Positions 25,152-49,036 are shown, counted from the stretch's first letter. The stretch is 64,000 nt of DNA from Blastochloris viridis (GCA_005768725.1 VAFM01000002.1:546048-610047); one strand, 5' to 3'. Notes: a model not told the origin generated them from the letters alone. Numbers and translations: made by a program.

Positions 25152-25216
25152 GGTTGTCTCCTTTTTTTCTGTTTATAGATAGCATATCCTGAAGGAAAAG
25201 AAAGAGAACCTCCGAA

Positions 25217-31082: not shown

Positions 31083-32495
31083 TTAGAACATCTCCGAGAG
31101 CTTGGCGTCCACATGGCCTGCCTGTACATGGGCAAACGCGGTCAGTTGCTGCAGGTCCATCACCACTTCCGGCTGGTCTGGCAGGCTGGGTAGCTCGTGC
31201 CAGCGCTTCAGCACCGCGGTGTGGCGTCCTGCGTCCGGCGTTAGTTTCAGAACCGGACCCCACATGTGCGTGTGGATCAGTAAGGTAAAGCAGCCATTGC
31301 TGGCATTCTGGCCGTCATGCTCACGGGCGATGAAACCAGCTTCCTGCAACTGGTTGGCCAGGTGCGGCCATGCCGGGTGTTGCAAGCCGCCGCTGGTATC
31401 CCACAGGCCAAGGGTTTGGCGCAGGGTGGGCTTCAAGAGCGGTGCTAGCACATGCAACAGCGCTTCCTGTTTTAGCCAGACGCTGCCATCGGCCAGTTTC
31501 AGGCAGGTGGTGCCACTGTCCAGGCTGGAAGCAGGTTCCAGTTCGTTCAGCAGGGCGGGCCACTGGCTGGCCATATTCGTGCGCAGTTCGTCCAGTTGTT
31601 CGGCGTCCATCTGGTCCAGTTCGCGCACATCCAGTTGCTGGAGCTGGGCATCGGCACGCCACAGATAATCAACAATTTCGCGCGCCAGCGGCGTGCTGTT
31701 CAGGGGCAACTGGTGGGGTGTCGCGTGGTAGCGCAGGGCTATCAGCAGAGTGCGTTGTAATTCTTCACCTTCAGCAGTGCCTTTCATCGCGCGGAACGCC
31801 GGGAACGTGGAGAGCAGAAAGGCGGTAATGCCGCCATGGGCTTGGCAACGCTGCGTGAACTTCACGCTATCGCGCTTCCAGAAATGGCTGAGTGGCGCGC
31901 TGCTGCGCTTCTCCACAAAGGCATGGACTAAGGCCAGATCCTTCGAGAGTGCCGCAATACGATGCCAGTGGGTCGCACCGGGGATCTGCCGCATCACCTG
32001 CCAACGGGCAACGGCCAGCTCATACAGGCTGGCGAACTCGCGGCCGGGGCTGGCTTCGTGGCGTTTGTTCTGGGCATTCAGATTGACCGGCCAGTGACGA
32101 TAACCCTGCAGAAAACCAATCAATTCCGCTTCCAGCGGGTGCAATCCCGGCCAGTCCGGCGGAGCCACCAGTTGCGGCAGGAACTTGGTCAGAGACATCT
32201 TGAAGGGAGTGGTGGATTTTCCGTCCGGCGTCGCCATCTGGAATTCGGTGCCGAACTCATCCGTTACTCCGGCTTCAAACCCGGTGGAGAGATTGCGACG
32301 CATATCGCCCAGCAGGGTGGCGGCCCATACCAGTACAAAACCGGCCAGTGCGCCGCCCGCTAAGAGCAGAACACTTCCGGCATAACGATGCGTATCAAGG
32401 CCAGTCCCGAGCAAAACACTCCAGACCACGTGGGCTGCCCACAAAAACATCATCAAAAGACTCATCACCAGAACGGCGCGACCTCTAGGTCCCAT
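31083..32495 (-). CDS. hypothetical membrane-anchored protein (two N-terminal TM helices plus a large cytoplasmic domain); start uncertain (ORF extends to 32639)
   Basis: TM helices VLVMSLLMMFLWAAHVVWSVLL and SVLLLAGGALAGFVLVWAATLL; no confident catalytic motif. Opposite strand to the surrounding pilus genes. Confidence 0.4.
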   Translation of the reverse strand: MGPRGRAVLVMSLLMMFLWAAHVVWSVLLGTGLDTHRYAGSVLLLAGGALAGFVLVWAATLLGDMRRNLSTGFEAGVTDEFGTEFQMATPDGKSTTPFKMSLTKFLPQLVAPPDWPGLHPLEAELIGFLQGYRHWPVNLNAQNKRHEASPGREFASLYELAVARWQVMRQIPGATHWHRIAALSKDLALVHAFVEKRSSAPLSHFWKRDSVKFTQRCQAHGGITAFLLSTFPAFRAMKGTAEGEELQRTLLIALRYHATPHQLPLNSTPLAREIVDYLWRADAQLQQLDVRELDQMDAEQLDELRTNMASQWPALLNELEPASSLDSGTTCLKLADGSVWLKQEALLHVLAPLLKPTLRQTLGLWDTSGGLQHPAWPHLANQLQEAGFIAREHDGQNASNGCFTLLIHTHMWGPVLKLTPDAGRHTAVLKRWHELPSLPDQPEVVMDLQQLTAFAHVQAGHVDAKLSEMF

Positions 32496-32660
32496 ACGGC
32501 ACTTTTCCTTTGTGAGAGCGTGGCTTTCCAAGGTTCCGCTGCGGTTGCAGCATTGTCTTTTGGTCACACTCCGGTCATCAGATGCGGCTGGGCCACTCCC
32601 AGACCGCCATACAACTATGATAGCGTCACATCCAACCAATAACAGTCAAGCACGTCGGGC

Positions 32661-33992
32661 ATGTCCATGAAACTTTTTCAGACCCTACCGCAGCAAACCC
32701 GCATCAACCTGAGCGGGATGCGCCACGCATTCTGGGCCGTCGCTCTCGCGTCCACGGTGCTCAGCACAGCGTCTGCCGCACCCTCACTACCGGTACCGGG
32801 CTATGTCGCGCCGGTCGTCGGCACCGATGTAGCACCCTATGTCGATGATACGCGCGGGGTTTACATTCCGCCGCACCAGCAACTGCGCCAGAAAACCGAT
32901 TCCGAACTGGCCAACTGGGATGCGGTGATGGAAACCAACCGTCCGCTCTACGCCCAGCAAAACCCGGCTGGCCGCCAGTATGAGCGCGCCCTTAACACGG
33001 TCGCTTCCGGTGTCGCCGACACCCGCAGCGAACTGGACCGCATTGCCGGCGACCCTGGCCTTCTGCAAGGCGGCAAGCCCAAGGCCGATGCCGACCTGTA
33101 CGCGCAGGATGAATACGCCGACAACACCGAAACACTGTCGATGAATGGCCGTCAATTGGCCCAGAACACCCGCGCCAGCCAACCGCGCGGTCTGGAAGAT
33201 TACCCCTCGCTGGCCACCGGTGGTCGTCCTCGCACCCAGGCAGGCGTGGATATCGGTGCGGCTCCGTCAGCAGCCGCTGCGCCGTCCGCGCCTTCATCCT
33301 CCGCTATGAGCGATGGCGGTGTTGAACTGGCCGTCGGCGGTCCGGCTGGCCGTTCCGACCTCGACCTCCAGAACGGTATCGTCCGCCTGAAGGAAGAACG
33401 TATTTCCGTCCGCCGCGCCATGCAGCGCATGCTCGACCAGGTTGGCGGTGCAGGCTGGACAGTGGTGTGGGACCTTGATGAGGTTAACGCCGGTCTGCCG
33501 GATATGGAGATTAGCATTTACGCTGAAGAGCCGTTCATCAAGGTGATGAATGCCATGCTTGCCCGTCTGCAAACCCGCAGCGGCCAGCCGATCCGCGTGA
33601 TCAAGTACGATAAGACCCAGCGTCTGGTTGTCACCGACCGTACCGGCGGCGACGCCCGTAGCGGCAGCATCGGTGCCGGTGGAGCCGCAGGCGGTAACGT
33701 TGCGATCACCGAGACCGTGCTGAAGGAAAGCACCATCAGCCTCCACTACGATGAAATTCCGCTGGTCGATGCGCTGGAAAACATTGTGAACCAGGCTGGT
33801 AAGGGCCAGTGGCGCCTGCGTATGTACGCCGGTACCGACCAGGTCCTGAAGCCTGCCCACGTCGAAGAACCCTTCGGTGTTGCCCTTGAGCGTATCCTTA
33901 AGGTGTTTAACCTGCGTTACGAAATCTTCCCCGGTGGCAAGCTTATCGTGGTGACCAGTGGCAGCACGTTTGGTTTCCGCGGCGTAGAATAA
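32661..33992 (+). CDS. periplasmic pilus-biogenesis accessory protein with two tandem TcpQ/PilL-family (STN-like) domains
   Basis: Signal peptide; two ~80-aa repeats (…GWTVVWDLD…EEPFIKVMNAMLARL…RLVVTDRTG and …GQWRLRMYAG…EEPFGVALERILKV…KLIVVTSG). Located immediately upstream of the secretin gene. Confidence 0.55.
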   Translation: MSMKLFQTLPQQTRINLSGMRHAFWAVALASTVLSTASAAPSLPVPGYVAPVVGTDVAPYVDDTRGVYIPPHQQLRQKTDSELANWDAVMETNRPLYAQQNPAGRQYERALNTVASGVADTRSELDRIAGDPGLLQGGKPKADADLYAQDEYADNTETLSMNGRQLAQNTRASQPRGLEDYPSLATGGRPRTQAGVDIGAAPSAAAAPSAPSSSAMSDGGVELAVGGPAGRSDLDLQNGIVRLKEERISVRRAMQRMLDQVGGAGWTVVWDLDEVNAGLPDMEISIYAEEPFIKVMNAMLARLQTRSGQPIRVIKYDKTQRLVVTDRTGGDARSGSIGAGGAAGGNVAITETVLKESTISLHYDEIPLVDALENIVNQAGKGQWRLRMYAGTDQVLKPAHVEEPFGVALERILKVFNLRYEIFPGGKLIVVTSGSTFGFRGVE

Positions 33993-34008
33993 GAAGAAGT
34001 AGAAAACG

Positions 34009-36015
34009 ATGACCCGTCCCAGCATGATGCCTTTCAGTTCGCAACCCTCCGGCAAACTGTTCTGCCGCGCTTCAGCCCTTGTTCTGGTAGCTGCTGCTTT
34101 GGCATCGTGCAACGGTATCTCGTACACTCAGCGCCAGTCTCCGGCCAATCCATACAAAGATTTCAAAGAGAAGAACCAGTCTAACGCCTCGGTGCTGGGT
34201 ATGGGCGAGCCGATCAGCTCGCGCCAGATGACCGCCAACGCCACGCTGTCGCTCAATGGCCAGTACACGCTGGCCGAGGTAATGCAGCGCGTGGCCGGTA
34301 CCTATAATACCGCTATCCGCTGGGGCAACGGCGCCCGCCGCGAAAAGCGCGAGAACGTGACCATCAACAAGCTGACCTTCGATGAAGCGCGTAACTATAT
34401 CGAAGATGTTTACGATATCCAGATCATCAAGGAAGGCGAACGCCGCCTGCTGATTCTGCCGTCGGCCTCCGAACCGCGCCTGACAGCCTTCAACCCGGGC
34501 AACAACGTCAGCCTGTCGCAGGCACTGCGCGGTCTGGCCGAGCAATGTAACTACAACCTCGTCATTAACGAGAACCGCGAGCAGATCAACAGCATCCGCG
34601 TGACCGCCAACCTCAAGAACGTCACCTGCTACGACGCGTTTGAAGCCCTGCTCAATCCGCACGGTCTCAGCATCATCAACGCAGGCGACTACATGACCGT
34701 CGGTGGCCTGCCGCAACGCCAGTGGACACTGAACCTGTACGAGCCGCAGCGCACCGAAACCGTGGAAGTGAACTACTCGTCCGACTTCTCCGCAGCCACC
34801 GGCGGCGGTACCGGCAGCAGCAGCGGTGGCGGCTCGTCCGAGTCTTCCAGCGGTGCCCAAAGCGCCGGTGGCAGCACCAAGGTCAGCGTCAAATACGACC
34901 GTAACCTCTGGAAAGATCTGCAGGAAGATCTGGACGAATTGGTCAAGAGCAACTGTATCCGCCCGCTGGATGCCGGTGTGGTGCAGCCCGCCACGGCCAG
35001 CCTGCTGCCACCACCGGATGGCAGCACGCCGGATCCGTCTCTGGTTCCGCCGCAAGATCCCTCTATGGCAGGCGTAGGCGGTAGTAGTACGGGCTCTTCA
35101 AGCTCGGGCATGACCGACGACGCAAGCGCTGCAGCACAGTGTGGTTATGTGCGTATCAACAGCGCGGTCGGTCTCATCCAGATGCGTGCACCACGTGCCG
35201 TGCTCGACGAAGCCGATGAAATCATTCAACGTGTGCAGGATATCGCCAGCCGCCGTCTGCTGCTGGAAGCCCGTGTGCTGGCTGTCAGTCGCAACCGCAA
35301 TTTCAACCAGCAGGCTAACCTCAAGGTGGGCAGCAACAAGCTGAACACCGGTGCCGGCTTTAGCGGTAGCGTCACCGCGGCGCTCAATAACATGCTGCCG
35401 ACTTTCACGGCCACCGACATGACCACCGTGGGCGGTATCGCTGTCAAGAGTGGTTCGCTGGATGCCGTGATAGCGTTGCTGGAACAGTACGGCACTACCT
35501 ATGAGCTGATGCATCCGATGATGGAGCTGATGGACCGCCAGCGCGCCACTCTGATTGATGGCCGTAACGAGAAGTACTACGTGGTTACCACCGATACCAC
35601 GACCGATTCTGGCACCACCACCAGCACCAGCGAAGTGGAAGAGCGCAGCCAGTTCCTGGGCCTGCAGTTCTCCGCCACAGCGCAGGTGAGCGACAGCCCG
35701 GAAGAGCCGCACACCATCAGCCTGCAGATTCCGATCACCTCGCTGGCCAAAACCATCGATATTCCGAATGGTGACGGTACCACGGCCGGTGTCGCTCCTG
35801 TCGCCAACACCCGTCTTATCGACCAGAAGGTGCGTATCCGCGATAACGAGATCAAAGTCATCGGTGGTTTGACCAAGACCATTGCGATTGATACCGAATC
35901 CGGCGTGCCGCTGATCCGCGATATCCCGGCGCTGGGCAAGCTGGCCAACGAAGAAGCGATCCAGTACGAGAACGTCGAGTTTGTAATTTTGCTACAGGTG
36001 CGTCGTCTCTATTAA
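34009..36015 (+). CDS. lipoprotein secretin (PilN/BfpB/TcpC-like, type IVb pilus outer-membrane channel)
   Basis: Lipobox ALASC; C-terminal secretin motif KVIGGLTKT...GVPLIRDIPALGKLANEE...VEFVILLQVRRL; Gly/Ser-rich linker; 668 aa. Confidence 0.85.
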   Translation: MTRPSMMPFSSQPSGKLFCRASALVLVAAALASCNGISYTQRQSPANPYKDFKEKNQSNASVLGMGEPISSRQMTANATLSLNGQYTLAEVMQRVAGTYNTAIRWGNGARREKRENVTINKLTFDEARNYIEDVYDIQIIKEGERRLLILPSASEPRLTAFNPGNNVSLSQALRGLAEQCNYNLVINENREQINSIRVTANLKNVTCYDAFEALLNPHGLSIINAGDYMTVGGLPQRQWTLNLYEPQRTETVEVNYSSDFSAATGGGTGSSSGGGSSESSSGAQSAGGSTKVSVKYDRNLWKDLQEDLDELVKSNCIRPLDAGVVQPATASLLPPPDGSTPDPSLVPPQDPSMAGVGGSSTGSSSSGMTDDASAAAQCGYVRINSAVGLIQMRAPRAVLDEADEIIQRVQDIASRRLLLEARVLAVSRNRNFNQQANLKVGSNKLNTGAGFSGSVTAALNNMLPTFTATDMTTVGGIAVKSGSLDAVIALLEQYGTTYELMHPMMELMDRQRATLIDGRNEKYYVVTTDTTTDSGTTTSTSEVEERSQFLGLQFSATAQVSDSPEEPHTISLQIPITSLAKTIDIPNGDGTTAGVAPVANTRLIDQKVRIRDNEIKVIGGLTKTIAIDTESGVPLIRDIPALGKLANEEAIQYENVEFVILLQVRRLY

Positions 36016-36166
36016 GCTCAAATGCCCGCGGCCTCTAGCCGAAACAGGGCAAATCAGGGCAACATAGAATCCAAGGTCTGTCTGCCGGTGTGGGGCGGTG
36101 CGTAATCTCTTACGCCCCGCACGGGTAAGACCAAGAGGAGGAAAAACCATTAACACGCCCCTGCCC

Positions 36167-38017
36167 ATGCAGAACCCGCTCCCGCCGGAAGCTACACCGG
36201 CGCAGGAGGCTGGTGCCGCGTTGCCGCCGCAAACGTCCTTGCCACAAGGCGTTCCGATGCCGATCAGCCTGAGCCCGACGCCGCAGGTCCAGGTGGGGGG
36301 AGAAGAACTTTCCCCGCGCGAGGAGATGTATCAGAGCATTCTGAAGATTCTGCATGCCTCGAACGATCTCGGTATCGACCGCATGGCGCACGCGCATCTG
36401 GAGAAGGCGCTGGTCAGCGCCAGCAGCAAGCAGCTGGTGGTGCGTGACCTCATTAACCAGAAGATCATTAACCGCGTCCAGCTGGCCCGCGCCATGGCAC
36501 GCTACAACCGCGCGCGTGAGCTTCTCTCGATTCTCGATATTCCCGCCGAAGCGCAGGCCCTCCGCTCCGAACTGCAGCCACGTCTGCGCACCGTGCTGCG
36601 CCGCGAACGTATTATTCCGATGTCCATCCGCAAGGAGGAAAGTGGCGCGATCACCGACGTCCACTTTGCCCACGACAGCCCGCTGCGCGACTTGGTGCTG
36701 GAAGCCAACCTGCGGGAATTCTTCCCCCCTACCGCCAAAATTCACTGGCACTTCTGCCTGCGCGAAGTGGCGGGTGCGTTCTGGATGGCCGGCGAATCGG
36801 AAAGCATCGACTCCGACATGGAGGCCGAAGCCCTGCTTGACCGTATCATCACCAACGCCATCGATGCCCGCTCCTCGGATATTCACATCGACCCGTCGAT
36901 CAAGGGTGAGCCGCGCGCCATCATCAAGTACCGTATCGATGGTTTCGTGCACCCCAAAGAGGTGATCACCACCGAGCAGCTGGAACGCCTGCGCGTGCGT
37001 ATTGAGAACTTGGCGCGTATGCCGAAAGTGAACCTCAATTACGCCAACAAGGGCGCGTTCACGCGTTCGGGGTACGACTGGCGTGTCCAGATCCAGCCGC
37101 ACGCGGGCCGTCTGGGCCCGGTGCCGCGTCTGGTCCTGCGTCGTCTGCAGCCGGATGTCATGCCGCTCGAAGTGCTGGGTTATCCGCCTGACTTCATTGA
37201 AAAGATCAAGACTGCCGCCGGCTCGCCGAACGGGGTTATTTTCTGGACCGGGCCGACCGGGAGCGGCAAAACCGAAGCGATTCACTCCGCCGTGGTCAGT
37301 GCCAACCCGATGGCCAAGGGCCTCTCGGTCCATACCATTGAAGACCCGCCCGAAAAGCGCGTGCCCGGTTATGCCGTGCAGATGGAGATTGCCAGTGAAG
37401 ACCCCAACCGTACCGGTCTGCAGCTCATGAAATCGTCGCTGCGTGCCGACCCGGATGTGGTGATCTTTGGTGAGGTACGTGACTCGGAAATGGCCAAACT
37501 GGTGTTCGAAGCCGCCAACACCGGTCACTTGGTGTTCACAACGCTCCACACCAACACCGCGTTGGATGCGATCGCGCGTCTAGATGAGCTCGGCATCAAC
37601 GGCTTCCTGCTGTCCTATGTCCGCGGTATCGCAGCACAGCGTCTGGTGCGTCGTCTGTGCGGTCACTGCAAACTGCCGATGCAAGAGCCGGATGATTACA
37701 CCCGTTACGTCTTCGACCGCTACAACGTGCCGCTGAGTGGCGCCAACCTGTTCGTGGCCAATAACGAAGGTTGTGCCAACTGCAACTACACCGGTTACTA
37801 TGGCCGTATCGCCGCCGCCGAATGGCTCAAGCCGACGCGCGAGATCGTTGAAGCCAGTACCGAAAAGAACTACGCCGACCTGGAAGATATGGCTAAGCGT
37901 GCCGGCTGGCAGCCGATGGGCCGTATGGGCGTGCAGCATGTCAAGAACGGCATTACCGACGCGACCGAACTGTCCACCAAGATTCTCGAGCTCGCCGCCG
38001 AGACGCTGACGGGATAA
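36167..38017 (+). CDS. GspE/PilB-family secretion ATPase (type IVb pilus assembly ATPase)
   Basis: Walker A WTGPTGSGKT, Asp box, Walker B VVIFGEVRD, His box LVFTTLHTNTA, tetracysteine CGHC...CANC. The ORF extends upstream to 36098, where aagaggagg is followed by an in-frame ATT. Confidence 0.92.
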   Translation: MQNPLPPEATPAQEAGAALPPQTSLPQGVPMPISLSPTPQVQVGGEELSPREEMYQSILKILHASNDLGIDRMAHAHLEKALVSASSKQLVVRDLINQKIINRVQLARAMARYNRARELLSILDIPAEAQALRSELQPRLRTVLRRERIIPMSIRKEESGAITDVHFAHDSPLRDLVLEANLREFFPPTAKIHWHFCLREVAGAFWMAGESESIDSDMEAEALLDRIITNAIDARSSDIHIDPSIKGEPRAIIKYRIDGFVHPKEVITTEQLERLRVRIENLARMPKVNLNYANKGAFTRSGYDWRVQIQPHAGRLGPVPRLVLRRLQPDVMPLEVLGYPPDFIEKIKTAAGSPNGVIFWTGPTGSGKTEAIHSAVVSANPMAKGLSVHTIEDPPEKRVPGYAVQMEIASEDPNRTGLQLMKSSLRADPDVVIFGEVRDSEMAKLVFEAANTGHLVFTTLHTNTALDAIARLDELGINGFLLSYVRGIAAQRLVRRLCGHCKLPMQEPDDYTRYVFDRYNVPLSGANLFVANNEGCANCNYTGYYGRIAAAEWLKPTREIVEASTEKNYADLEDMAKRAGWQPMGRMGVQHVKNGITDATELSTKILELAAETLTG

Positions 38018-38023
38018 CGGCAT

Positions 38024-39112
38024 ATGGGCATTCAGTTTGGTAAAGCCGGGTTCAATACCTCCGACCGTATCGATTTTTTCAAGACCCTGTCGGGCTGGAT
38101 GAACTCCGGCGCCGGGCAGATGTCGCTGGGTGAAGCCGTGGCCAACACCACACAGGGTTTCAGTCAGGAAGAATACGCCACGCTGGCCCCGCAGATGAGC
38201 ATGATCGAGCGCGACGTGGCTGGTGGTCAGACACCGCTGTATCAGGCCCTGGCCATGGCCAACGTCGGCTTCAAACCGCAGGAATTGGCCATCATCGAGG
38301 CTGCGGAAAAAGGGAACCAATTGCGCCAGGCCTTGCCGGCACTGGTCGAGGCGCTGGAAGTCGAAAGCTCCGGCCGACGCGACCTGATGTCGAAAATGGC
38401 GGGCCCGATCATTATCGGCGTGATGCTGATCGCGCTGTCGATCGGGGTACTGATTTTCATGCTGCCGATGGTGATCCAGCCGGTACTTGACCGTAATGCC
38501 GAAGCGCTGATGAAGTTTCCGTTTATTCTACGCATGTTCTGGTACACTTCGGTCTGGCTACGCGCCAACCCGATGATACCGATCGTGTTGGTGGGGGTTC
38601 TCGTAGCGGGTCTGCTGCTGCGCAATGCACCGTTGGTCCAGCCGCACTGGATCCGTTTCACCATGTGGTGGGGCGTGACCCGTAAGCTGATTCTGGGCTT
38701 CAACGCGATGGTCTCGGTCTTCTTCATTCCGGCGCTGGTGCGCTCCGGCATGCCGACCTACATGGTGCTGGAGCAAATGGCTTACTGTGTCAGTCACCCT
38801 CTTATCCGCAGCCAGTATCTGGCCGCTGCCGAAGATCACCGCAATGGGATGCGTATGAGCCAGGCCGTGGAAGGCCTGCCGTTCCGCGCCTCGTTTTTCA
38901 ACGCCATCGTGGCGGGCGAGTCCACCGGTGCCATCGCGGCCCGTGTGGAAGACCTCCAGCTGGCCTACAAACTGGAGCTTGAGCGCTATATCCGTCAGGT
39001 TTCTGCAACCCTCAAGTTCATCGTGATGACCGTGCTGCTGCCGTTGTTCATTATCTGCACCTATACCTCGCTGGTGGGGCCGATCTTCGCGCTGATGGAA
39101 TACGGACGCTAG
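38024..39112 (+). CDS. GspF/PilC-family inner-membrane platform protein
   Basis: 362 aa, three TM segments, duplicated GspF-type cytoplasmic domains; follows the ATPase with a 6-nt gap. Confidence 0.85.
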   Translation: MGIQFGKAGFNTSDRIDFFKTLSGWMNSGAGQMSLGEAVANTTQGFSQEEYATLAPQMSMIERDVAGGQTPLYQALAMANVGFKPQELAIIEAAEKGNQLRQALPALVEALEVESSGRRDLMSKMAGPIIIGVMLIALSIGVLIFMLPMVIQPVLDRNAEALMKFPFILRMFWYTSVWLRANPMIPIVLVGVLVAGLLLRNAPLVQPHWIRFTMWWGVTRKLILGFNAMVSVFFIPALVRSGMPTYMVLEQMAYCVSHPLIRSQYLAAAEDHRNGMRMSQAVEGLPFRASFFNAIVAGESTGAIAARVEDLQLAYKLELERYIRQVSATLKFIVMTVLLPLFIICTYTSLVGPIFALMEYGR

Positions 39113-39145
39113 GACGATGCAGGATTACGAAGGACGACCCACACC

Positions 39146-40636
39146 ATGCCATTAACCGTTATTTCCCGCCGTTCTGTTGTCTACCGCGAAAGCGGTAGCG
39201 GCGAAATGACCGTGCTGCTGGTCCCGGGACGCGACCAGATTCAGGTTGTGAAAGACCTTGCCGGTCTCGGTAAGGCCGACATTCCGGTACGCGACCCCAA
39301 TGCGCAAGGCAAGCAGGTACAGGTGCGCAAACAGGCGCAGTTAAGCCGTGTGTATATTGGTCGCCGGTATATTTACGGTAACCTGCCGAACGAGATTTCC
39401 GATCTCCGCCAGCCGGTAAAGGTCTGGCTGGCCGAAGACTACGCGCCGACCCAGAGCCAGGCGTTCTTCTATGTGTTCAGCAGCACGGTGGTTATCCACG
39501 GTGTGCGCGAGCAGGATGACGAAGGCCAGCAAAGCTGGCGCACCGCCCAGTTGCTGCTGGGGGAAGGTGACCCGGTCAAGAACATCATCGATGCCATCAG
39601 CGACTATGCGCTGGCCAATTCCACCGAAACGCTCACCGTGGCGGTGCTCAACAAGCTGGACTTGTACGAAAAGCTGCAGGCGGGCCTGGCGACCTATAAC
39701 ATCAGCCCGGTGCCGTTCTCCAAGCTTAAGCCGCAGCCGGGCGTCAAACCGCTGTACCGCCACCGCGACTACACCATTCTCTATCTCACCTTCGCATTGC
39801 TGGGTCTTATCACCGTGCTGGCCAGCGGCGCCTATGCCTTCTTTACGATGCTGGAGCGCGACAAACTGGCCGAAGAGGTCAAGGACGTCCAGCACCGCAT
39901 CGAGTCGATCAAGCTCAACCAGAACGTCGGTCAGGTGACCGACCCGCAATCCGTCTTGCAGGCCATGAGCCGTGGTATCAACCAGCAGATGTCCGTCATT
40001 CTGCACGCCGCAGGTGAAGTGGGCGAACAGTTGGGGAAAATGGAAAAAGTTCGCCTGATGTTTGAAGGCGGCGACTACGAAGGTATTCCGGTCGAAGGTG
40101 TGGGCGAGGGCCAGCAGGTCGCACTTGTCCGTCTGTTGGAGATGAAGAAAGAACTGCTGCTGGATCAGGAACTGGATGCCACCCAGATCGTCGCCACCCA
40201 CCCGTGGGTGCGTGGCATCATGCGTGGTGGCGCGGTCGGAGAATCTGGCGTCATCGCCGTGGTTCTGCAGGTGGACCAGACCGCCGAGATGCGTGCGGCC
40301 GCGACCGCTCCGTTGCCAGAGGCTCAACCGGCTCCGCAACCGGAAGCTTCTGCGCCTAACCCCGACGCCGCAACCGCGACCGAGGCACCTGCTGCCACGG
40401 TTCCTGAAGGACCGTCTGCCACCCAGCCAGTGGCCTCGACCTTTGCTCCGGTACCGGCTGTCCAGGCGTCGGCCACCGTTCAGCCGGAAGGACTCGTTTC
40501 CACTTCGGCACCCTCCACCGGTGGAAGCTTCCAGCCGGCGGCGCAGCCCCAAACTCAACCGGTTTCGGCCACACTTCCGGCAGCGGCGCCCGCCGTGTCG
40601 GCTACGCAGCCTAAAGTACAGGAGGCCGCGCAATGA
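39146..40636 (+). CDS. bitopic inner-membrane pilus-assembly protein (GspL/PilM-PilO-like architecture) with a Pro/Ala/Gln-rich C-terminal tail
   Basis: Cytoplasmic N-domain, single TM ILYLTFALLGLITVLASGAYAFF, periplasmic domain, then APQPEASAPNPDAATATEAPAATVPEGP low-complexity tail. Confidence 0.5.
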   Translation: MPLTVISRRSVVYRESGSGEMTVLLVPGRDQIQVVKDLAGLGKADIPVRDPNAQGKQVQVRKQAQLSRVYIGRRYIYGNLPNEISDLRQPVKVWLAEDYAPTQSQAFFYVFSSTVVIHGVREQDDEGQQSWRTAQLLLGEGDPVKNIIDAISDYALANSTETLTVAVLNKLDLYEKLQAGLATYNISPVPFSKLKPQPGVKPLYRHRDYTILYLTFALLGLITVLASGAYAFFTMLERDKLAEEVKDVQHRIESIKLNQNVGQVTDPQSVLQAMSRGINQQMSVILHAAGEVGEQLGKMEKVRLMFEGGDYEGIPVEGVGEGQQVALVRLLEMKKELLLDQELDATQIVATHPWVRGIMRGGAVGESGVIAVVLQVDQTAEMRAAATAPLPEAQPAPQPEASAPNPDAATATEAPAATVPEGPSATQPVASTFAPVPAVQASATVQPEGLVSTSAPSTGGSFQPAAQPQTQPVSATLPAAAPAVSATQPKVQEAAQ

Positions 40637-41262
40637 TTCGCAGTACCTACCGCAACCTGATGATCGGTGTGCTTCTGGCCTGCTTTGGCCTGTCGTATTA
40701 CCTGTTCACCACCTCGCAGGATTTCCAGCTGCAGATCCAGCAGAACAACAACGACCTGATTCGTCTGAATCAGGAACTGGAGAATATGCAGAACCTCAAC
40801 GTCGCGCTGACCGAGCTGGATAACCTGACGATCACCGAACAGACCGCCACACAGCTCGACATTCTGCGCCACTTGGGCCTCGACAAGAGTGATTACAACT
40901 TCCAGCTGGAAGCGCGCGACCAGCAGAGCGTGGGCGGTACCTCGCTGTTCATCCACACCGTGCAGGTTTCGGCCAAACTGCCGTATGCCGAGGCGCTGGC
41001 CCTGTGCGACCGTCTTCAGAACACCAAGAAGATCGTGATGAGCGAGATCACGTTGGATGCGCCGCAGCCCAGTGCCAACGATAACCTCGTCGGTCTCACC
41101 ATCCGCGGGAATATTTACGGTCTGGACAAGATCATTCCGCCGCTGGAGATCATTCCTGCCGAGCCGATGAAGCCGGAGACCGAGGCCGGAGCGGTCCCGG
41201 AAGCATCAACCGAAACGGCACCGGCCGACGCAGCTGCGTCACCGCAACCGGCCCAGCAGTAA
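40633..41262 (+). CDS. bitopic pilus-assembly protein (GspM/PilO-like architecture)
   Basis: N-terminal TM LMIGVLLACFGLSYYLF, coiled coil, periplasmic domain. Start overlaps the previous stop (ATGA). Confidence 0.5.
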   Translation: MIRSTYRNLMIGVLLACFGLSYYLFTTSQDFQLQIQQNNNDLIRLNQELENMQNLNVALTELDNLTITEQTATQLDILRHLGLDKSDYNFQLEARDQQSVGGTSLFIHTVQVSAKLPYAEALALCDRLQNTKKIVMSEITLDAPQPSANDNLVGLTIRGNIYGLDKIIPPLEIIPAEPMKPETEAGAVPEASTETAPADAAASPQPAQQ

Positions 41263-41274
41263 GGAGGCGGCACT

Positions 41275-41874
41275 ATGATATTCTCCCCCACTTTCGCCCG
41301 CAGTCTGACCGCGTTGATTCTCACGCTGGCGGCTATGCCGGCGGCTCAGGCCGAAGGCTTGCTCTGGAAGACCACCAGCCGCTACCAGCCGGCGGTAGTT
41401 CCTCCCTACACCGGTCAGCCCAGTCCATTCCCGTCCGTCGTCACCGTCGTGCCGGAAGCCTCTCCCGAAGGTCCGACGCTGGAAGACATGGAAGTGGAGC
41501 GCCTCCAGCAGGAAGCGGTGGAACACGCTACGCAGCTGATCAACTCGCCCGGCGCGCTGGTACCCTACATGGAAGGTGCCGTAGTTGGCGGTCGGGTCGA
41601 AGGTCCCCACGGCAGCAAGATTCTTATCGGTAATGAATGGATCGGCCCGGGCATGAGCATGAATGTGCGCCTGATGGCGTCCGACAGTGTGCGCGAGGCC
41701 ATCAACAAGGTCTCCGACTTTAACCAGGATACCGCCAAAAGCCTGAAGGAGCAGCTTTCCCTGCGCCTGCGCCAGACCCCGCTGACCAAGATGAAACTGC
41801 GCGAGATCCGTAGCGACTCGCTGGTGCTGGTGGGCGACTACGGCGAAAAAGTCATGAAATTCGTCATGCAATAA
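41275..41874 (+). CDS. periplasmic pilus-assembly accessory protein (PilP-like)
   Basis: Signal peptide SLTALILTLAAMPAAQA; ~170-aa periplasmic domain. Confidence 0.4.
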   Translation: MIFSPTFARSLTALILTLAAMPAAQAEGLLWKTTSRYQPAVVPPYTGQPSPFPSVVTVVPEASPEGPTLEDMEVERLQQEAVEHATQLINSPGALVPYMEGAVVGGRVEGPHGSKILIGNEWIGPGMSMNVRLMASDSVREAINKVSDFNQDTAKSLKEQLSLRLRQTPLTKMKLREIRSDSLVLVGDYGEKVMKFVMQ

Positions 41875-41957
41875 CCGCGTGTCAGTCACAAAGGTTGGAG
41901 ACACCTTCCATAAGAAGTGACCACGAAGGCCTATAACCAAGGATACTTACAGCGCAT

Positions 41958-42920
41958 ATGCAGGCAATGTTCATCTTTTCTCTGTTTACGTTCGTCCTGG
42001 CGTTGATGGGCTCGATTATCTCGTTCGGCAGTAAGGATGCCGCGATCCTGACCGACGAACGTATCAAGGAAACCGGACGCTTCTTCGAAGCCATGGCGCA
42101 GGTGATCAAGACGGATGTGACCCAGAAGTATCTGACGGCCAACCCGAACAATCACGTAACGATTGCCAATTATATTACGGGTCTTCCGGAAGTGGCCGCC
42201 ATGTCGGCGGGTCTGTATAACGATGTCGGCGTCGATGCCTGGGGTAAGCCCCTGCAAGGTGCCATCGTCACCGAATATCAGCTGATTACCGCCTCCGCCG
42301 ATGCTAATAGCGCGGTCAGTGTACCGGTCACGGCCATTGCCTTTGTTTCCAGCGGACCGGATGGCGTGTTGCAAACCGTAATGCCGCTTAACCCGACCAC
42401 CATCAACCAGGTGCGTAATATCGTGGCGCCGAGCGATGCCGCAGGCCGCCCGACCAGCGACGATATCGTCTATACGTTCGATAACCGCGAAGACCAGATG
42501 CGCCAGTTGCAAACCCTCCACGCGCACATGGAGCGTATCGGTACTGCCTCGCTCAAAGAGTACCAGTACCGTGTCAGCGATTTCCGCGCGGCCCTGATCA
42601 AACAGTATGAGACCGATGTGGCGCTGGGTAAGGCTGTGGCTGCACCGGATATGAATCTGGCCAACCAGCCCAACCCGCCCAAAATGCTGTCGCTGGACAG
42701 CAGTGCCAACCGTTACAAGCTGGGGGTGGACGAAGATATCGCCATTCTGGAGCGTACGCTGGCCAGTGGCCGTCGCATGGTGCTTTCGGCCGTCACACCG
42801 GCAACCGCTACCGCACCGCTGGTGCTGACACTCACCAACAGCAGCTCCAGCCCGACACCCTGGGGCACGTCCAGCCGACCGTTCCGCTACGTTGTCCGCG
42901 TCTTTCCGGATAAAATCTAA
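41958..42920 (+). CDS. hypothetical protein with a hydrophobic N-terminus (320 aa)
   Basis: MFIFSLFTFVLALMGSIISFG N-terminal helix but no canonical prepilin G/FTLxE motif. Confidence 0.4.
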   Translation: MQAMFIFSLFTFVLALMGSIISFGSKDAAILTDERIKETGRFFEAMAQVIKTDVTQKYLTANPNNHVTIANYITGLPEVAAMSAGLYNDVGVDAWGKPLQGAIVTEYQLITASADANSAVSVPVTAIAFVSSGPDGVLQTVMPLNPTTINQVRNIVAPSDAAGRPTSDDIVYTFDNREDQMRQLQTLHAHMERIGTASLKEYQYRVSDFRAALIKQYETDVALGKAVAAPDMNLANQPNPPKMLSLDSSANRYKLGVDEDIAILERTLASGRRMVLSAVTPATATAPLVLTLTNSSSSPTPWGTSSRPFRYVVRVFPDKI

Positions 42921-42988
42921 CGGGAGCCCCACGTATGATCTTAACCCGCACATTGTTTAAATCCGCCCCCCAACAAAAGGATGCACCC

Positions 42989-44089
42989 ATGAACCTGAAG
43001 AGTTCCAAAGGCTTTACGCTGTTTGAAATGATCTTGACCGTCGCCATTATGGCGATTCTGGTGGCCACCACCACGCCGTCGATCTACGAATTCATTCGCC
43101 AGCGCGACAAGCAGAATGAGGAGGTCGCGCAAATGCAGGTGCGCAAGGCGCTGGAAGCCTATATCGCCGACAAGGGCGTACCGCCGAGCGACAACGATGT
43201 GACCGAACCGTGGTACGAAAAACTGGCCGGTTATACCAGCCTGTCCGCGAACGAGATTGCCAACGACGTCTGGGGCCGTCCGCGCATGTATCTCTCGTAT
43301 CTCGATACCTCCCGCAATATCTACGGGACGACCGTCAGCGTGACCTACGTCACCCTGCACAGCATGGGCGAGAACGGTCGGGCTGAACGGACGGAAACCG
43401 TGAACGGCAGTACCGTGACCGTGAACGGTGTCGCTGTCAGCAACAACGCGTTCAGCGGCAGCACCGCATCCGGCGCTACCGGTTGGTGGAAGAACATGAC
43501 CGACCGTGCCACCGCCTTTGCTACCGTACGCGGCGCGGGGGATGACCAGATGATGCGCTATACCAATTACGAAGACGTGCTGCGCCGCTATAACGCCACG
43601 CGCGAACGTATGGACAAACTCAGCGAAGCGCTGGAAACCTATGCCCGCAGCCAGTATGCCAACCACGTGGCCGCCTGTTCGTCCTCTACCACCACCACCG
43701 CCACCTGTAACAGCGATGGTACCCCGCGCCTGGCGATCTACTACCCGCGCAGTACCGCCCGTCAGGTGACGGCCGATGCCGCCCGCTATGTTCGCGATGG
43801 AGCTATCGTCACCGAAGTGGTCGTCAACAACGCAGCTACAACGGATGATGATCGCCGTAAGAACATGGAAGACCTGATGGCCCGTCTCGGTTTGCCGCTG
43901 GAGTATTGCTGCTCGGCGCTGAACAACGCAGCCGATGGCAAACCTGCGCCGTTCTACTACTTCAGCAACCCGCGCCCGCGTGACGTGAGTTCCTGTGGTG
44001 CCCGCCCAGGTGTGGATGCCGCCAAATTGCCGGCGCGTATCACTACCATCTACAACGTAGATACCAGCGCCCAGCGTACCTGCGGTTAA
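42989..44089 (+). CDS. large type IV prepilin (366 aa) with a class-III signal peptide; PilV/TcpB/minor-pilin-like
   Basis: MNLKSSKG|FTLFEMILTVAIMAILVATT: leader, G-1, F+1, E+5 and hydrophobic alpha1-N. The ORF extends upstream to 42935. Confidence 0.85.
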   Translation: MNLKSSKGFTLFEMILTVAIMAILVATTTPSIYEFIRQRDKQNEEVAQMQVRKALEAYIADKGVPPSDNDVTEPWYEKLAGYTSLSANEIANDVWGRPRMYLSYLDTSRNIYGTTVSVTYVTLHSMGENGRAERTETVNGSTVTVNGVAVSNNAFSGSTASGATGWWKNMTDRATAFATVRGAGDDQMMRYTNYEDVLRRYNATRERMDKLSEALETYARSQYANHVAACSSSTTTTATCNSDGTPRLAIYYPRSTARQVTADAARYVRDGAIVTEVVVNNAATTDDDRRKNMEDLMARLGLPLEYCCSALNNAADGKPAPFYYFSNPRPRDVSSCGARPGVDAAKLPARITTIYNVDTSAQRTCG

Positions 44090-44105
44090 TCGGACGCGGC
44101 CGGAC

Positions 44106-44459
44106 GTGGAGTTCCTGACCAGACTGATGACGCTCTACGTCAACGGAGCGGCGGCGATAGCCGCCGCTTGGCCGTGGTTCTGGCCGCTGGTGGGTGGCAT
44201 GCTGGGCGCCGTCTTCGGGTCCTTCCTCAACTGTGCGCGCTACCGGGTTCCGCGGGGGCTATCGCTGCGCCGTCCACCCAGTCATTGCCCCTCCTGCAAA
44301 ACGGTGCTGGGCGTACCAGACCTCGTGCCGATCCTTAGCTTCGTGGCATTACGGGGCCGTTGCCGCCATTGCGGCATCCGTATCGGCAGCACCAGTCTCT
44401 GGATTGAGATCGTCTGCGCACTTCTCGCTGCAGCTCTTGTGGCGCTCCTTCAGGGTTAA
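44106..44459 (+). CDS. prepilin-peptidase N-terminal zinc-binding domain only (A24 N-domain / DiS-P-DiS); truncated, no catalytic domain
   Basis: LGAVFGSFLNCARYRVP...CPSCKTVLGVPDLVPILSF...GRCRHCGIRIG matches the PilD N-domain with two Cys pairs. The ORF stops after 117 aa and no continuation exists in any frame before the next gene. Confidence 0.65.
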   Translation: MEFLTRLMTLYVNGAAAIAAAWPWFWPLVGGMLGAVFGSFLNCARYRVPRGLSLRRPPSHCPSCKTVLGVPDLVPILSFVALRGRCRHCGIRIGSTSLWIEIVCALLAAALVALLQG

Positions 44460-44581: not shown

Positions 44582-46696
44582 ATGACAGTGTTGCACACCC
44601 TTTCGCGTACCGCTCTGGTGGGGACGGCCCTTGGCCTGACCCTCGCTGGCTGTGCCGCAAGCCCGGCGGCTGCCGTAACCGAGCAGAACCACACCGCAGC
44701 GGCCAGCCTTAACCAGCCGCAGGGCGTGCAGTATGCCAGTCTCGACACCTCCGAGGTGATGACCGACGCCACCGAACCGGTCGTGCGCAAAGGCACCGTG
44801 CTCTGGCGCCGTATGGGAGACGAACCGGCGCCCAAGGCCCCGGAACCGCAAGTGAGCGAAGAGCTCAAGCGCCTGCGCGAAGCGGTCGAACGCATGCAGG
44901 GCCTCACCACTGAGCAGATCGCAGCCCTCCAGCAGAAACTGGCTACCAACGAGCAGGCTCTCCAGCAGGTCTCGGCCGAGCAGGCCCGTCAGGAGCGTGA
45001 CCTGCGTGAGCAAACCACCTCCACCGTCTCCAATGTGGCCAAAATGGCCGAAGAAAGCCTGCGCTCCATGCGTCAGGTGGCCGAAAACAATTCGCAGACG
45101 CTCGAACAGAGCAACCAGCAGTTGTCGCGCTTGGAAAACAGCCTGCAATCGCAACTGAGCGAGGTGAAAACCCTTCAGAAAACCGCGGCCGAAGTCCAGC
45201 TGGCGCGCCAGAAGGCTGCCGAAGAAGCCCACAACGCACGCCTCAAGGAGGTCAGTATTCAGTTAGCTGCCGCCGAAAAGATCCAGCAGGAACGTCTGGC
45301 AGCTGCTGAGAAGGTTCAACAGGAACGCCTCACTACGGCCGAGCAACTCCATCAGGCACGCCTCAAGGAAGTCAGCAATCAGGTGGCCACGGCAGAACAA
45401 CTGCAGCAGGCTCGCCTGGCGACGGTCGAGCAGGTTCAGAATGCCCGTCTCAAAGAAGTCAGCACGCAACTCGCCGCTGCCGAGCAGGTGCAGCAGGCCC
45501 GTATGGTTGCGGTCAGCAGTCAATTGGCCGCCAACCAGCGCCTCACCGAGGCGCAACTGGCTGACCTCCGTAAGGTCGCCGCCGAAAACCGCGCGCTCGC
45601 CAGCTCCGAAACCGCCAACGTCGCCGTGGCGCTGCGTATTTACGCCGACCGCCAGCTGGCGCAGGCGCAGGCGACCACCTCCGCCACGCTGGCCGAGATG
45701 GCTTCCGCCACCAATCAGAACATTGCCGCGTTGGACCAACGCACCAGCCAGCGCATGGGTGTGATGTGGACCGCCGCCAGCCGTCAGGCCGAAAAACTGG
45801 CCGAAGAAAAGGCCAACGCCGTGGCCGCCAGCGTTGCCGCCCTGCAGCAGCAGACCGCTTCTCAGAAGATCGAACCGGCCCAGATCCGCGCCATCGCCGA
45901 ACAGACCGTGGCCGAATCCACCCCCGAATTCCGCGCTCTGGCTCTTCAGACCCTCAAGGATGGTCAGGATTATATCCGCAGCGTCGCCCGCAGCGCGGTA
46001 CAGGACAAAGACCCCGGCATGACCAGTGCGCTGGCCGATGCCGCGCGTGATGTGATTACCCGTGACGACAAGGTCGTCTTCGCCATCCGCAAAGCCGTGG
46101 CCGACGAATTGCAGAGTGCCGTCACCGGCACGACCACGACGGCCGAGCCCGCCACCGGCGCACGCACAACCTTGGGCCCGGACCACACCCTGACCGAAGC
46201 CGAACAACTCGACCCCAACCGCCTGCGCATTGCCCAGTTACTGGCACCGGAAGGCGGTCCCGCCTCCGACGCCGCCAAGCTGACCGATGCCCAGCTGGCG
46301 GCCATCAGCCCGGCCGCAGGTCAGGCTTCGGCTGGCGCGGTGGTAGGCCAGCAATCATGGTCGGCGCAGGGCACCAGCCTCATGCGCCCGCGTAACCGTG
46401 CCGACTGGATGGACATCCGTCAGTACAAGGTGGTGGTGCACCAAGATGACCAGACGCTGGAAACCCTGCTTGGCAATATCCTCAAGCACGCCGAGCCGTT
46501 CACCGGTCCGTGGCAGATCCGCTGGAAGATCTCCGACAGCAACAAGGACCTGATGACCGAGAAGTTCAGCCTGGACGCCGAAGCGCCGTTTGAAGAGTTT
46601 GTCAGTTACCTGGCCCAGTACATCGTCAACGATCGTGGCGTAAAACTGAGCGTAAGCCTGTTCGACAGCGAACGAATTATTGTAATTTCCGACTGA
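44582..46696 (+). CDS. PilL-like conjugative-region lipoprotein: long coiled coil plus C-terminal TcpQ/STN-like domain
   Basis: Lipobox LAGC; ~450 aa of heptad/11-mer repeats (AEKIQQERLAAAEKVQQERLTTAEQLHQARL...); C-terminal domain ...TLETLLGNILKHAEPFTGPWQIRWK...LSVSLFDSERIIVISD. Confidence 0.6.
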   Translation: MTVLHTLSRTALVGTALGLTLAGCAASPAAAVTEQNHTAAASLNQPQGVQYASLDTSEVMTDATEPVVRKGTVLWRRMGDEPAPKAPEPQVSEELKRLREAVERMQGLTTEQIAALQQKLATNEQALQQVSAEQARQERDLREQTTSTVSNVAKMAEESLRSMRQVAENNSQTLEQSNQQLSRLENSLQSQLSEVKTLQKTAAEVQLARQKAAEEAHNARLKEVSIQLAAAEKIQQERLAAAEKVQQERLTTAEQLHQARLKEVSNQVATAEQLQQARLATVEQVQNARLKEVSTQLAAAEQVQQARMVAVSSQLAANQRLTEAQLADLRKVAAENRALASSETANVAVALRIYADRQLAQAQATTSATLAEMASATNQNIAALDQRTSQRMGVMWTAASRQAEKLAEEKANAVAASVAALQQQTASQKIEPAQIRAIAEQTVAESTPEFRALALQTLKDGQDYIRSVARSAVQDKDPGMTSALADAARDVITRDDKVVFAIRKAVADELQSAVTGTTTTAEPATGARTTLGPDHTLTEAEQLDPNRLRIAQLLAPEGGPASDAAKLTDAQLAAISPAAGQASAGAVVGQQSWSAQGTSLMRPRNRADWMDIRQYKVVVHQDDQTLETLLGNILKHAEPFTGPWQIRWKISDSNKDLMTEKFSLDAEAPFEEFVSYLAQYIVNDRGVKLSVSLFDSERIIVISD
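45240..45530 (+). repeat. imperfect tandem ~33-nt (11-codon) coding repeats inside the PilL-like gene
   Basis: Repeating units ...caggaacgtctggca / caggaacgcctcact / caggcacgcctcaag / caggctcgcctggcg / aatgcccgtctcaaa... encode QQERL/QQARL coiled-coil repeats. Confidence 0.7.
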
Positions 46697-48272: not shown

Positions 48273-48300
48273 TTGCAAACCTTGCATGAAGCACCATAAT
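48273..48300 (+). promoter_or_regulatory. sigma70-like promoter candidate for the pilin/T4SS operon
   Basis: TTGCAA, 16-nt spacer, CATAAT, 24 nt upstream of the aaggag RBS and ATG at 48325. Confidence 0.4.
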
Positions 48301-48324
48301 CAAAGGCAAAGGAGACCCAAACAT

Positions 48325-48696
48325 ATGAATCAACGCACTCTTCTCTTCAGTGTAGCTGCCGTGGCCCTCATGGCGGTCATGATCGCTAACCCGGCTCTGG
48401 CGCAGGGTACGGGCGACGTCGGCGAAGCCGGTAACGCAGCAGCGCAAACCCTTGTCAGCGCCATTACCGGTAACATCGGTCTATTGATCGGCCTCGGTAT
48501 CACCGTGATGGGCCTGTGGACCTGGATTATCGGCCAGAAGACCGCAGCTGGTCTCACCATGGTTGTAGGTGGCGTGCTGCTGACCATGGCCCCGGGTATC
48601 TTCAAGGGTGCTCGCGACGTGGCCGTGGGTGTGGTCGAAGGTTTTGGTGGCGAAGCCTACCAGGTCGACGGCGCCCAGTCCTCGGGAGCTAACTAA
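48325..48696 (+). CDS. TrbC/VirB2/TraA-family conjugative pilin-like protein (paralog 1)
   Basis: Sec signal MNQRTLLFSVAAVALMAVMIANPALAQG, then two hydrophobic helices separated by a short charged loop (…ITGNIGLLIGLGITVMGLWTWIIGQKTAAGLTMVVGGVLLTMAPGIF…), ~95-aa mature size. Confidence 0.5.
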   Translation: MNQRTLLFSVAAVALMAVMIANPALAQGTGDVGEAGNAAAQTLVSAITGNIGLLIGLGITVMGLWTWIIGQKTAAGLTMVVGGVLLTMAPGIFKGARDVAVGVVEGFGGEAYQVDGAQSSGAN

Positions 48697-48715
48697 TCCA
48701 AGCGTAGTAGCATCC

Positions 48716-49036
48716 GTGACAAAACTCTTGCTACTGGTGGTGGCGGCACTCCTTCTGGGTGCCGCCACTGGCTATGCGCAGAGCGATGCCGGCGCGGTCG
48801 AGCTTGATCTCGTGCGGCGTATCTTCACGGGGAATATCGGCCTTTTCATCGGGCTGGCTATCACGATCATGGGCATCATCATGTTCGTGCAGGGCGATAC
48901 CGGTGGCGCGATCTTTACCGTCATTCTGGGCGTGCTTATCACCATGCTGCCGGGTGTCTATAATGGCCTCCGTTACATTGCCTGCCCGATCGCGGAGGGC
49001 TTTGGCGGGCATTGTGGAACTGAAACTTCGCAGTAG
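48716..49036 (+). CDS. TrbC/VirB2-family pilin-like protein (paralog 2); probable GTG start
   Basis: VTKLLLLVVAALLLGAATGYAQS signal, then …FTGNIGLFIGLAITIMGIIMFVQGDTGGAIFTVILGVLITMLPGVY…, same architecture as the upstream gene. Confidence 0.45.
   Translation: MTKLLLLVVAALLLGAATGYAQSDAGAVELDLVRRIFTGNIGLFIGLAITIMGIIMFVQGDTGGAIFTVILGVLITMLPGVYNGLRYIACPIAEGFGGHCGTETSQ

Follow-up and report, generated by a model that had tools for sequence, protein, structure and literature searches.

Organization of the locus

In a 64,000-nt stretch of DNA from Blastochloris viridis (GCA_005768725.1, VAFM01000002.1:546048-610047; the window in what follows), ten collinear genes on the plus strand, here called A to J, fill positions 32661-44459 with intergenic gaps of -4 to 83 bp. 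Probably together with two lipoprotein genes, K and L, which follow J in all related loci compared, they appear to encode a machine of the type IV filament (T4F) superfamily, and this module is embedded in a type IV secretion system (T4SS) cluster. An initial annotation of the window had missed the surrounding T4SS cluster and had described A-J as a type IVb pilus-like assembly cluster that lacks an obvious major pilin and carries only the remnant of a prepilin peptidase gene. Its inventory of genes is borne out by our searches; the terms 'remnant' and 'type IVb' are not. J, the supposed remnant, belongs to a conserved family of proteins that consist of the N-terminal domain of A24 prepilin peptidases and little else, and in every context examined its gene directly follows that of a large pilin-like protein, I.

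A conserved stand-alone A24 N-domain protein

J matches Pfam A24_N_bact (PF06750) only (E = 1.4e-26, model positions 2-82 of 84) and is laid out as a first transmembrane segment (TM1), a zinc finger and a second transmembrane segment (TM2). The four cysteines of the A24A N-terminal domain (PF06750/IPR010627) are all present as C61-x2-C64-X21-C86-x2-C89 (codons 44286-44372), with G84-R85 directly before the third Cys. Peptidase_A24 (PF01478), the domain with the two catalytic Asp residues, is absent from the protein. Compared with PilD/GspO (MEROPS A24A; PF06750 plus PF01478), J shares the whole N-domain, the Cys spacing, the Gly-basic pair and the flanking TM segments, but it lacks the peptidase domain, is a separate gene product (108-170 aa in the family) and has WPWFWP and TM1-Cys motifs of its own.

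A search of 5.8 billion proteins returned 86 homologues of J, nearly all of them 98-181 aa long, with PF06750 only and 44-89% identity, and when 1.84 billion representatives were searched exhaustively, the first full-length peptidase ranked behind about 27 short proteins (98-179 aa). The position directly after the I homologue was seen in at least 13 loci, with a stop-to-stop open reading frame (ORF) of 116-198 aa. In distant loci J is 46-65% identical, which is higher than the values for E, F, G, H or I. The ratio of non-synonymous to synonymous substitutions (dN/dS) is 0.10 against the related locus L001 and 0.19-0.35 against remoter loci, resembling the values of the platform and pilin genes. 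Among 84 short homologues, CxxC-X21-CxxC is present in all but one (83/84) and G-[RK] before the third Cys in 79; a GxGD-like motif occurs in none (0/84). A WPWFWP-like motif before TM1 (49/84) and a Cys within TM1 (56/84) set many of the short proteins apart from full-length peptidases, where each is found in 0 of 74. With 86 short homologues, constant adjacency to I, dN/dS values of 0.10-0.35 and motifs of its own, J represents a conserved stand-alone family under purifying selection and not a remnant.

A PDB sequence search with J gave no match and no solved structure, and in our literature searches we came across no published account of either a stand-alone A24 N-domain or the island. One orphan A24_N-only ORF of 98 aa was noted in a Bdellovibrionales metagenome-assembled genome (MAG; L025, 9470-9766) between an ABC transporter gene and purK, outside any T4F locus; therefore short A24_N proteins exist outside this island family too. 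A long J relative (P0198, 340 aa) lies in an ordinary pilC-pilD locus and is uninformative on the origin of the family.

N-methyltransferase activity has been established for PilD as a whole (PMC3584216). In the Pseudomonas aeruginosa enzyme, the same CxxC-X21-CxxC (C72, C75, C97, C100) binds zinc; the metal is needed for N-methylation dependent on S-adenosylmethionine (SAM) and is dispensable for leader cleavage, and the Gly and the basic residue beside the third Cys contribute to methylation (PMC3584216). IPR010627 is regarded as a methylase domain in reviews, which also list TadV-type peptidases without it; at the same time the methylase assignment of the PilD N-domain 'remains to be formally demonstrated', and the purpose of methylation is obscure (PMC10191384, PMC4471445).

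We propose, with moderate confidence, that A-J, probably together with K and L, form an accessory T4F module of the T4SS island in an uncultured alphaproteobacterium, and that J is a detached pilin N-methylase module. Alternatively, J may be functional and non-enzymatic, a prepilin-binding adaptor or chaperone that passes I (and H, a second pilin-like protein) to a host peptidase or to the platform and that may gate assembly; its zinc finger would then be retained only for structure or substrate recognition. To our knowledge, no SAM-binding motif is known in the A24 N-domain. The strict linkage of J and I suits a binding partner equally well as an enzyme, the family-specific WPWFWP motif and TM1 Cys suggest new interactions, and Aly et al. 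suspect a structural or substrate-recognition role for the zinc finger (PMC3584216). An adaptor sits less easily with the methylation-tied Gly-basic pair in 79 of the 84 homologues and with an A24 N-domain that is kept whole; we consider this role possible but somewhat unlikely.

Absence of a catalytic prepilin peptidase

The initial annotation had stated that J is limited to the zinc-finger N-domain and that the catalytic domain is missing in all frames, and Pfam, tblastn and profile hidden Markov model (HMM) searches all agree with it. With the peptidase halves of 35 full-length prepilin peptidases as queries, tblastn came up empty across the window and 25 related or flanking loci (best E = 0.036), as did a profile HMM of the same 35 halves (best E = 0.19), which recovers 61 control proteins when used as a positive control. 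These two methods were chosen since a strict GxGD pattern catches just 11 of 34 true peptidases. An A24 prepilin peptidase was thus found neither in the locus itself nor elsewhere in the 64 kb, nor in any related locus. Immediately beyond the window (L022) come VirB4/TraC, two proteins without family and then glycosyltransferases, again with no peptidase.

A frameshifted continuation of the peptidase gene can be ruled out: the stop of J and the start of K are separated by 122 bp, K opens with a lipoprotein signal, the domain appears in no frame, and the gene is short in each locus compared. The same observations bear on the idea that J derives from a prepilin peptidase gene by decay or through a sequencing error, and is hence a remnant or an artefact of a frameshift. 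The presence of the N-terminal domain alone and the derivation of the sequence from a MAG would suit this explanation. However, many samples, assembled independently, contain this short gene with 46-89% identity, its dN/dS is low, peptidase-domain sequence is found in no frame, the next gene begins close behind it and the clade has its own motifs. Because the gene is conserved, and because the divergence of the related loci excludes one clonal contaminant, we regard this explanation as refuted and give it scarcely any credence.

A missing peptidase gene is ordinary for such a locus. All loci of the mannose-sensitive haemagglutinin (MSH) type lack a peptidase, and peptidases may be shared between systems (PMC6668835); likewise, the pilin PilS2 of PAPI-1 is processed by the chromosomal PilD (PMC8565334, PMC3984277).

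A large canonical prepilin and its leaderless paralogue

Only I had been credited with a canonical prepilin leader (KG/FTLFE, in a protein of 366 aa), which is confirmed by profile searches and by a six-frame motif scan of the 64 kb. The scan gave one canonical class III signal, at 43010, and I alone carries N_methyl (PF07963; 24.6 bits, cutoff 21.2) and TIGR02532 (22.6 bits, cutoff 16.3). The leader MNLKSSKG is predicted to be cleaved before the Phe at 43013, and the Gly-1, hydrophobic alpha1 and Glu5 of the class III signals of the T4F superfamily are all in place. Across 61 homologues of I (31-87% identity) Glu5 (E13) is invariant, and Gly-1 (G8), Phe+1 (F9) and Pro22 (P30) are nearly so; Pro22 is also conserved in major type IVa (T4a) pilins (PMC11046646). 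In its sequence, I therefore bears the hallmarks (Gly-1, Phe+1, Glu5, Pro22) expected of a polymerising (pseudo)pilin. Its N-terminal part is GspG-like (TIGR01710, E = 8e-8), and the N-terminus matches geopilin, PilE and GspG sequences in the PDB; the globular region has two parts and four conserved Cys. The AlphaFold2 (AF2) model (pLDDT 93.3) predicts a 52-residue alpha1 (11-62), a four-stranded sheet, a 37-residue helix and a Cys-containing C-terminal domain. For comparison, mature major T4a pilins, of which 1,955 were surveyed, measure 42-297 aa and on average 141 aa (PMC11046646).

The conservation of I also bears on the suggestion that J is a dominant-negative decoy against the host peptidase or host pilins, which might for example silence host pili or type II secretion systems (T2SS) during island activity. 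Speaking for it is a truncated homologue of a host enzyme on a mobile-looking island, a speculative support limited to domain content. Yet the invariant cleavage site of I needs an active host peptidase, and the translational adjacency of J and I in every locus suggests cooperation; we judge a decoy function highly improbable.

That no small major pilin is evident had been noted before, and it also applies well beyond the window. In 23 related loci, scanned in the same way across flanks of about 10 kb as far as the contigs reached, convincing matches occur essentially only in the 340-386-aa homologues of I, which are duplicated in one lineage. The only other convincing class III match is the second motif-bearing ORF of L020 (5147-5728), which runs off its contig; all further matches are chance occurrences in unlikely ORFs. 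Short ORFs were considered as candidates for a small pilin, and none qualified in the window nor, in most loci, within about 10 kb on either side of the J homologue. The lineage of L006 and L015 (also L007; L006 6660-10001) has a leaderless H-like gene plus two tandem canonical large prepilins of 379 and 381 aa, and in the same lineage an extra gene of about 220 aa lies between the secretin and ATPase genes.

H had been described as a 320-aa protein with a hydrophobic N-terminus and no processing motif, and indeed its N-terminus, MQAMFIFSLFTFVLALMGSII, is hydrophobic over residues 1-25 and has no leader, Gly-1 or Glu5. An upstream extension of the ORF is impossible. The N-terminus is conserved in 15 homologues as MQ(A/T)(M/L/I)F followed by a hydrophobic helix, and none of them has a leader, Gly-1 or Glu5 either. 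When the H and I families are aligned with hhalign, they match with a probability of 88.9% (E = 2.4e-6) over a core of DxWGxP...SGPDG...DDxxxxFxN, and the AF2 model of H (pLDDT 84.9) has a layout that matches that of I. On the strength of these profiles we class H as a leaderless paralogue of I, rather than a small major pilin. The initial annotation had considered a chromosomal peptidase acting on an unrecognised pilin, which comes close to our own reading: H proves to be a pilin paralogue, but it is leaderless, and no small major pilin was detected beside it in the window.

A bolder form of our proposal can be built on H. J could be an autonomous membrane pilin N-methyltransferase that arose by natural fission of the bifunctional prepilin peptidase, and H could be 'born-mature', so that the fibre would be primed without a peptidase and only I would borrow one. 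Because residue 2 of H is Gln, the initiator Met would be kept, and J could then methylate H directly. If true, H would be the first type IV pilin to need no peptidase and J the first pilin methylase to exist as a separate protein; we consider this reading decidedly unlikely.

Assembly machinery and relation to known systems

The initial annotation had also listed a secretin, a GspE ATPase and a GspF platform, which are all present according to the Pfam and NCBIfam matches of B, C and D (Table 1). B has the secretin domain of a T4F machine (PF00263, E = 4.7e-20) and the lipobox LASC at its N-terminus; its top NCBIfam model is MshL (121.9 bits, cutoff 250.2), and it has weak GspD/PilQ matches in the PDB. 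C, the extension ATPase of the superfamily by its T2SSE match, scores 175-189 bits with the T4a ATPases PilF/PilB in the PDB, about 150-153 with GspE and 106 with the type IVb (T4b) protein BfpD. Translation of C probably begins further downstream than the listed GTG, as its homologues span 587-603 aa. D, the corresponding platform by its T2SSF match, is also matched by the GspF and ComGB models of NCBIfam below their cutoffs and is 51-89% identical across related loci.

Table 1. Genes of the T4F module and neighbouring genes of the T4SS island
Gene or feature	Position	Strand	Product	Match or characteristics
A	32661-33992	+	Secreted protein, 443 aa; candidate secretin partner or pilotin	Two TcpQ-like domains
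B	34009-36015	+	Lipoprotein secretin, 668 aa	Pfam Secretin PF00263 and Secretin_N_2
C	36098-38017	+	PilB/GspE-family extension ATPase	T2SSE, E = 2.5e-67
D	38024-39112	+	GspF/PilC-family inner-membrane platform, 362 aa	T2SSF, E = 1.2e-18, two stretches
E	39146-40636	+	Bitopic protein, 496 aa	207-aa cytoplasmic part, one TM segment (208-236), periplasmic part
F	40633-41262	+	Bitopic protein, 209 aa	N-terminal TM segment and coiled coil
G	41275-41874	+	Periplasmic protein, 199 aa	Signal peptide
H	41958-42920	+	Leaderless pilin paralogue, 320 aa	
I	42989-44089 (ORF from 42935)	+	Sole canonical prepilin, mature 358 aa	
J	44106-44459	+	Stand-alone A24_N domain protein, 117 aa	
K	44582-46696	+	Lipoprotein, 704 aa	Lipobox LAGC; coiled coil and TcpQ-like C-terminal domain
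L	46696-48237	+	Lipoprotein, 513 aa	K paralogue, same C-terminal domain
TraF-like thioredoxin	25217-26371			Upstream of module
TraD-like coupling protein (T4CP)	26871-28283			Upstream of module
Two VirB2/TrbC-type T4SS pilin ORFs	48286-49036			Directly downstream of L
TraL-like	49049-49315			Downstream
TraE-like	49453-50115			Downstream
SLT	50878-51723			Downstream
UvrD-like helicase	51612-53558			Kept inside T4SS cluster in all loci
VirB10 (TrbI)	61503-62954			Downstream
VirB4/TraC	just beyond window end (L022)			

E, F and G have the topologies that the initial annotation had given for three accessory proteins, and they are present in all related loci compared. None of them matches a Pfam or NCBIfam family, and a PDB-profile search with E was also empty. 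E is GspL- or PilM/N-like by position and topology only, F GspM- or PilO-like by topology only and G PilP- or GspC-like by position only; because sequence and profile searches gave nothing, the GspL/M/C-like labels are drawn from topology alone. The last 110 aa or so of E (40300-40636) form a tail with many Pro, Ala and Gln residues, and the E homologues are 378-496 aa long. A shows a weak match to Pfam TcpQ (PF10671, E = 8e-4), which is below the cutoff; its TcpQ-like domain resembles the C-terminal domain of L (E = 3e-5), and A is kept at the same position in related loci. K and L are both coiled-coil lipoproteins, and their C-terminal 95 aa or so are 32% identical (E = 8e-16). K probably belongs to the module or links the module to the T4SS. 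No tandem repeats were found in the region 32-49 kb.

The type IVb assignment is not supported by these comparisons. Pilins of type IVb have a leader of about 15-30 aa, a residue other than Phe at +1 and, in the case of the major pilin, about 180-200 aa. Here the leader counts 8 aa from the consensus start, Phe stands at +1, and the sole pilins are 320-386 aa long. The ATPase is nearer to PilF/PilB than to BfpD, MshL is the best secretin model, and the T4b secretin model PilN (TIGR02520) reaches 20.5 bits at a cutoff of 287.65. The T4b-like traits are limited to the lipoprotein secretin and the weak TcpQ-like domains of A, K and L. None of the curated T2SS, T4a pilus, MSH or PilN-T4b models comes anywhere near its cutoff. 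Judged from its sequences, the module is a divergent T4a/T2SS/MSH-like T4F system, not type IVb.

Within this broad group, the MSHA pilus loci are alike in that MshL is the top secretin model, a prepilin peptidase is lacking and the machine is T4a-derived. The module differs from them in having no match to the MshE N-terminal domain and no set of small Msh pilins, and also in gene order and in the accessory proteins. Neither a secretin above the MshL cutoff nor any Msh pilin was found in the module.

The T2SS deserves a closer look. The initial annotation had offered a pilus-independent secretion device as one of two options, and the module could be a T2SS-like secretion or piston device in which I and H would assemble no external pilus but only a short pseudopilus in the periplasm, and this would drive cargo, perhaps T4SS-related, through the secretin. 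Such a device would be compatible with either role of J. Similarities to the T2SS pseudopilus are indeed apparent: the N-terminus of I resembles GspG, the alpha1 and the DxWGxP region shared by I and H are GspG-like, and one pilin-like protein lacks Glu5, as does the T2SS tip pseudopilin GspK. Moreover, there are GspE- and GspF-like matches, the single ATPase is not accompanied by a PilT, and the subunits are bigger than any reported major T4a pilin. On the other hand, every T2SS model falls far under its cutoff (GspG reaches 32 bits, cutoff 88.85; GspD, GspE and GspF are also below), no minor pseudopilins of the GspH/I/J/K type and no candidate exoprotein were identified, and the constant T4SS association fits the mating-pilus precedent of R64 and PAPI-1. 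T2SS subunits of about 140 aa contrast with 320-366 aa here and five pseudopilins with two; H is wholly leaderless, and GspC and GspO are lacking from the module. Overall, a T2SS-like device appears unlikely.

The R64 (IncI1) thin pilus and the pil2 pilus of PAPI-1/pKLC102, type IVb pili carried by conjugative elements, are further close parallels. In both, a T4F system stands beside a T4SS and has a lipoprotein secretin with a TcpQ/PilL-like partner, and in PAPI-1 the catalytic peptidase gene is absent, too, and a host peptidase is required. R64 PilV is similar in size to the large pilin-like protein described here. However, there is no family-level homology between these systems and the module: its ATPase is nearer to T4a PilB/GspE than to BfpD, a short leader with Phe+1 takes the place of the long T4b leader, and it has neither a PilS-type major pilin of about 200 aa nor a shufflon. 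The stand-alone methylase-domain gene has no counterpart in R64 or PAPI-1.

Possible function of the module

According to our proposal of an accessory T4F module with a detached methylase, C, D and the alignment proteins E-G, together with B and its partner A, would polymerise prepilin I into a pilus or a short pseudopilus. Because the module encodes no catalytic prepilin peptidase, a host peptidase would have to cleave I; by the PAPI-1 and MSH precedents, a host-encoded A24 enzyme would remove its leader. Most likely, J would then supply or direct SAM-dependent N-methylation; its target would be Phe1 of I once cleavage has exposed it, and possibly Met1 of H as well. If methylation is supplied by J, the modification would become independent of the domain content of the host peptidase, which matters for TadV/CpaA types that lack the domain. 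H would probably prime or cap the fibre, by analogy with the Glu5-less GspK, and the filament would promote contact between donor and recipient for the T4SS, a role modelled on that of the R64 and PAPI-1 pili.

Several points weigh against this proposal. We infer both the presence and the type of the host peptidase, our searches covering the window and the related loci, and equally SAM binding and methylation by an isolated A24 N-domain, the activity of J included; the methylase active site could need the peptidase domain. The mature length of I, 358 aa, exceeds the range known for major T4a pilins, and I may therefore not form a long fibre. Foldseek finds no PDB structure that matches the globular part of either H or I. 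Pfam and NCBIfam, and PDB profiles in the case of E, reveal no homology of E, F and G to PilMNOP or GspLMC. Finally, Pfam and NCBIfam recognised no relaxase or integrase among the large island proteins (window and L022 10518-16868), so that, despite a T4SS with a coupling protein as found in conjugative elements, the term 'conjugative' is probable, not proven.

The combination found here is unusual: a conserved detached methylase domain, exclusively large pilins of 320-386 aa and a leaderless paralogue, in a T4SS-linked module from uncultured bacteria. Pilin N-methylation has been known for more than 40 years (PMC4471445, PMC10191384), and whether the methylase is self-sufficient could be tested cleanly with a natural isolated copy of the domain that is genetically linked to a single substrate pilin. 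Such a copy could also reveal the purpose of methylation and the way in which mobile elements deal with host peptidases that are without the domain. With a 358-aa subunit that has major-pilin hallmarks and with a leaderless paralogue, the module widens the range of pilin architectures, and it represents a third, non-T4b lineage of T4SS-associated pili, found to date almost exclusively in uncultured bacteria, mostly annotated as Alphaproteobacteria.

The T4SS island and its distribution

The island measures about 46 kb, as housekeeping genes run to about 24 kb of the window and resume about 7 kb past its end. The full order A to L followed by VirB2 recurs in eight related loci (L001-L003, L005-L008, L024) and in 13 species-representative MAGs. 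tblastn searches of the PLSDB plasmids with I and J gave no match. Nearly every relative is a MAG of an unclassified alphaproteobacterium or proteobacterium; some carry the label 'Pseudomonas fluorescens'. The label 'Blastochloris viridis' (a DI628 MAG) looks unreliable because all relatives of the island are MAGs of unclassified Alphaproteobacteria or Proteobacteria.

Some features of the surrounding genes are worth recording. The tandem VirB2/TrbC-like ORFs downstream of L (136 and 142 aa) overlap, and the first alone passes Pfam TrbC. The T4CP gene looks split: a two-TM ORF (MSEIKTQ..., ending at 26829) lies in another frame than the nucleotide-binding ORF at 26871-28283, which is without the usual N-terminal membrane part, and this may be a natural split or a frameshift. 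The island also encodes large conserved proteins without family match, namely of 518 aa (31083-32639, minus strand), 761, 641 and 733 aa, and of 872 and 297 aa in L022. The stretch 20000-26000 has a low G/C content (50-53% versus about 60% elsewhere) and carries HemN-like, Ham1, RNase PH and Bcp/AhpC housekeeping genes; it does not hold the T4SS island, which begins at about 24.1-25.2 kb.

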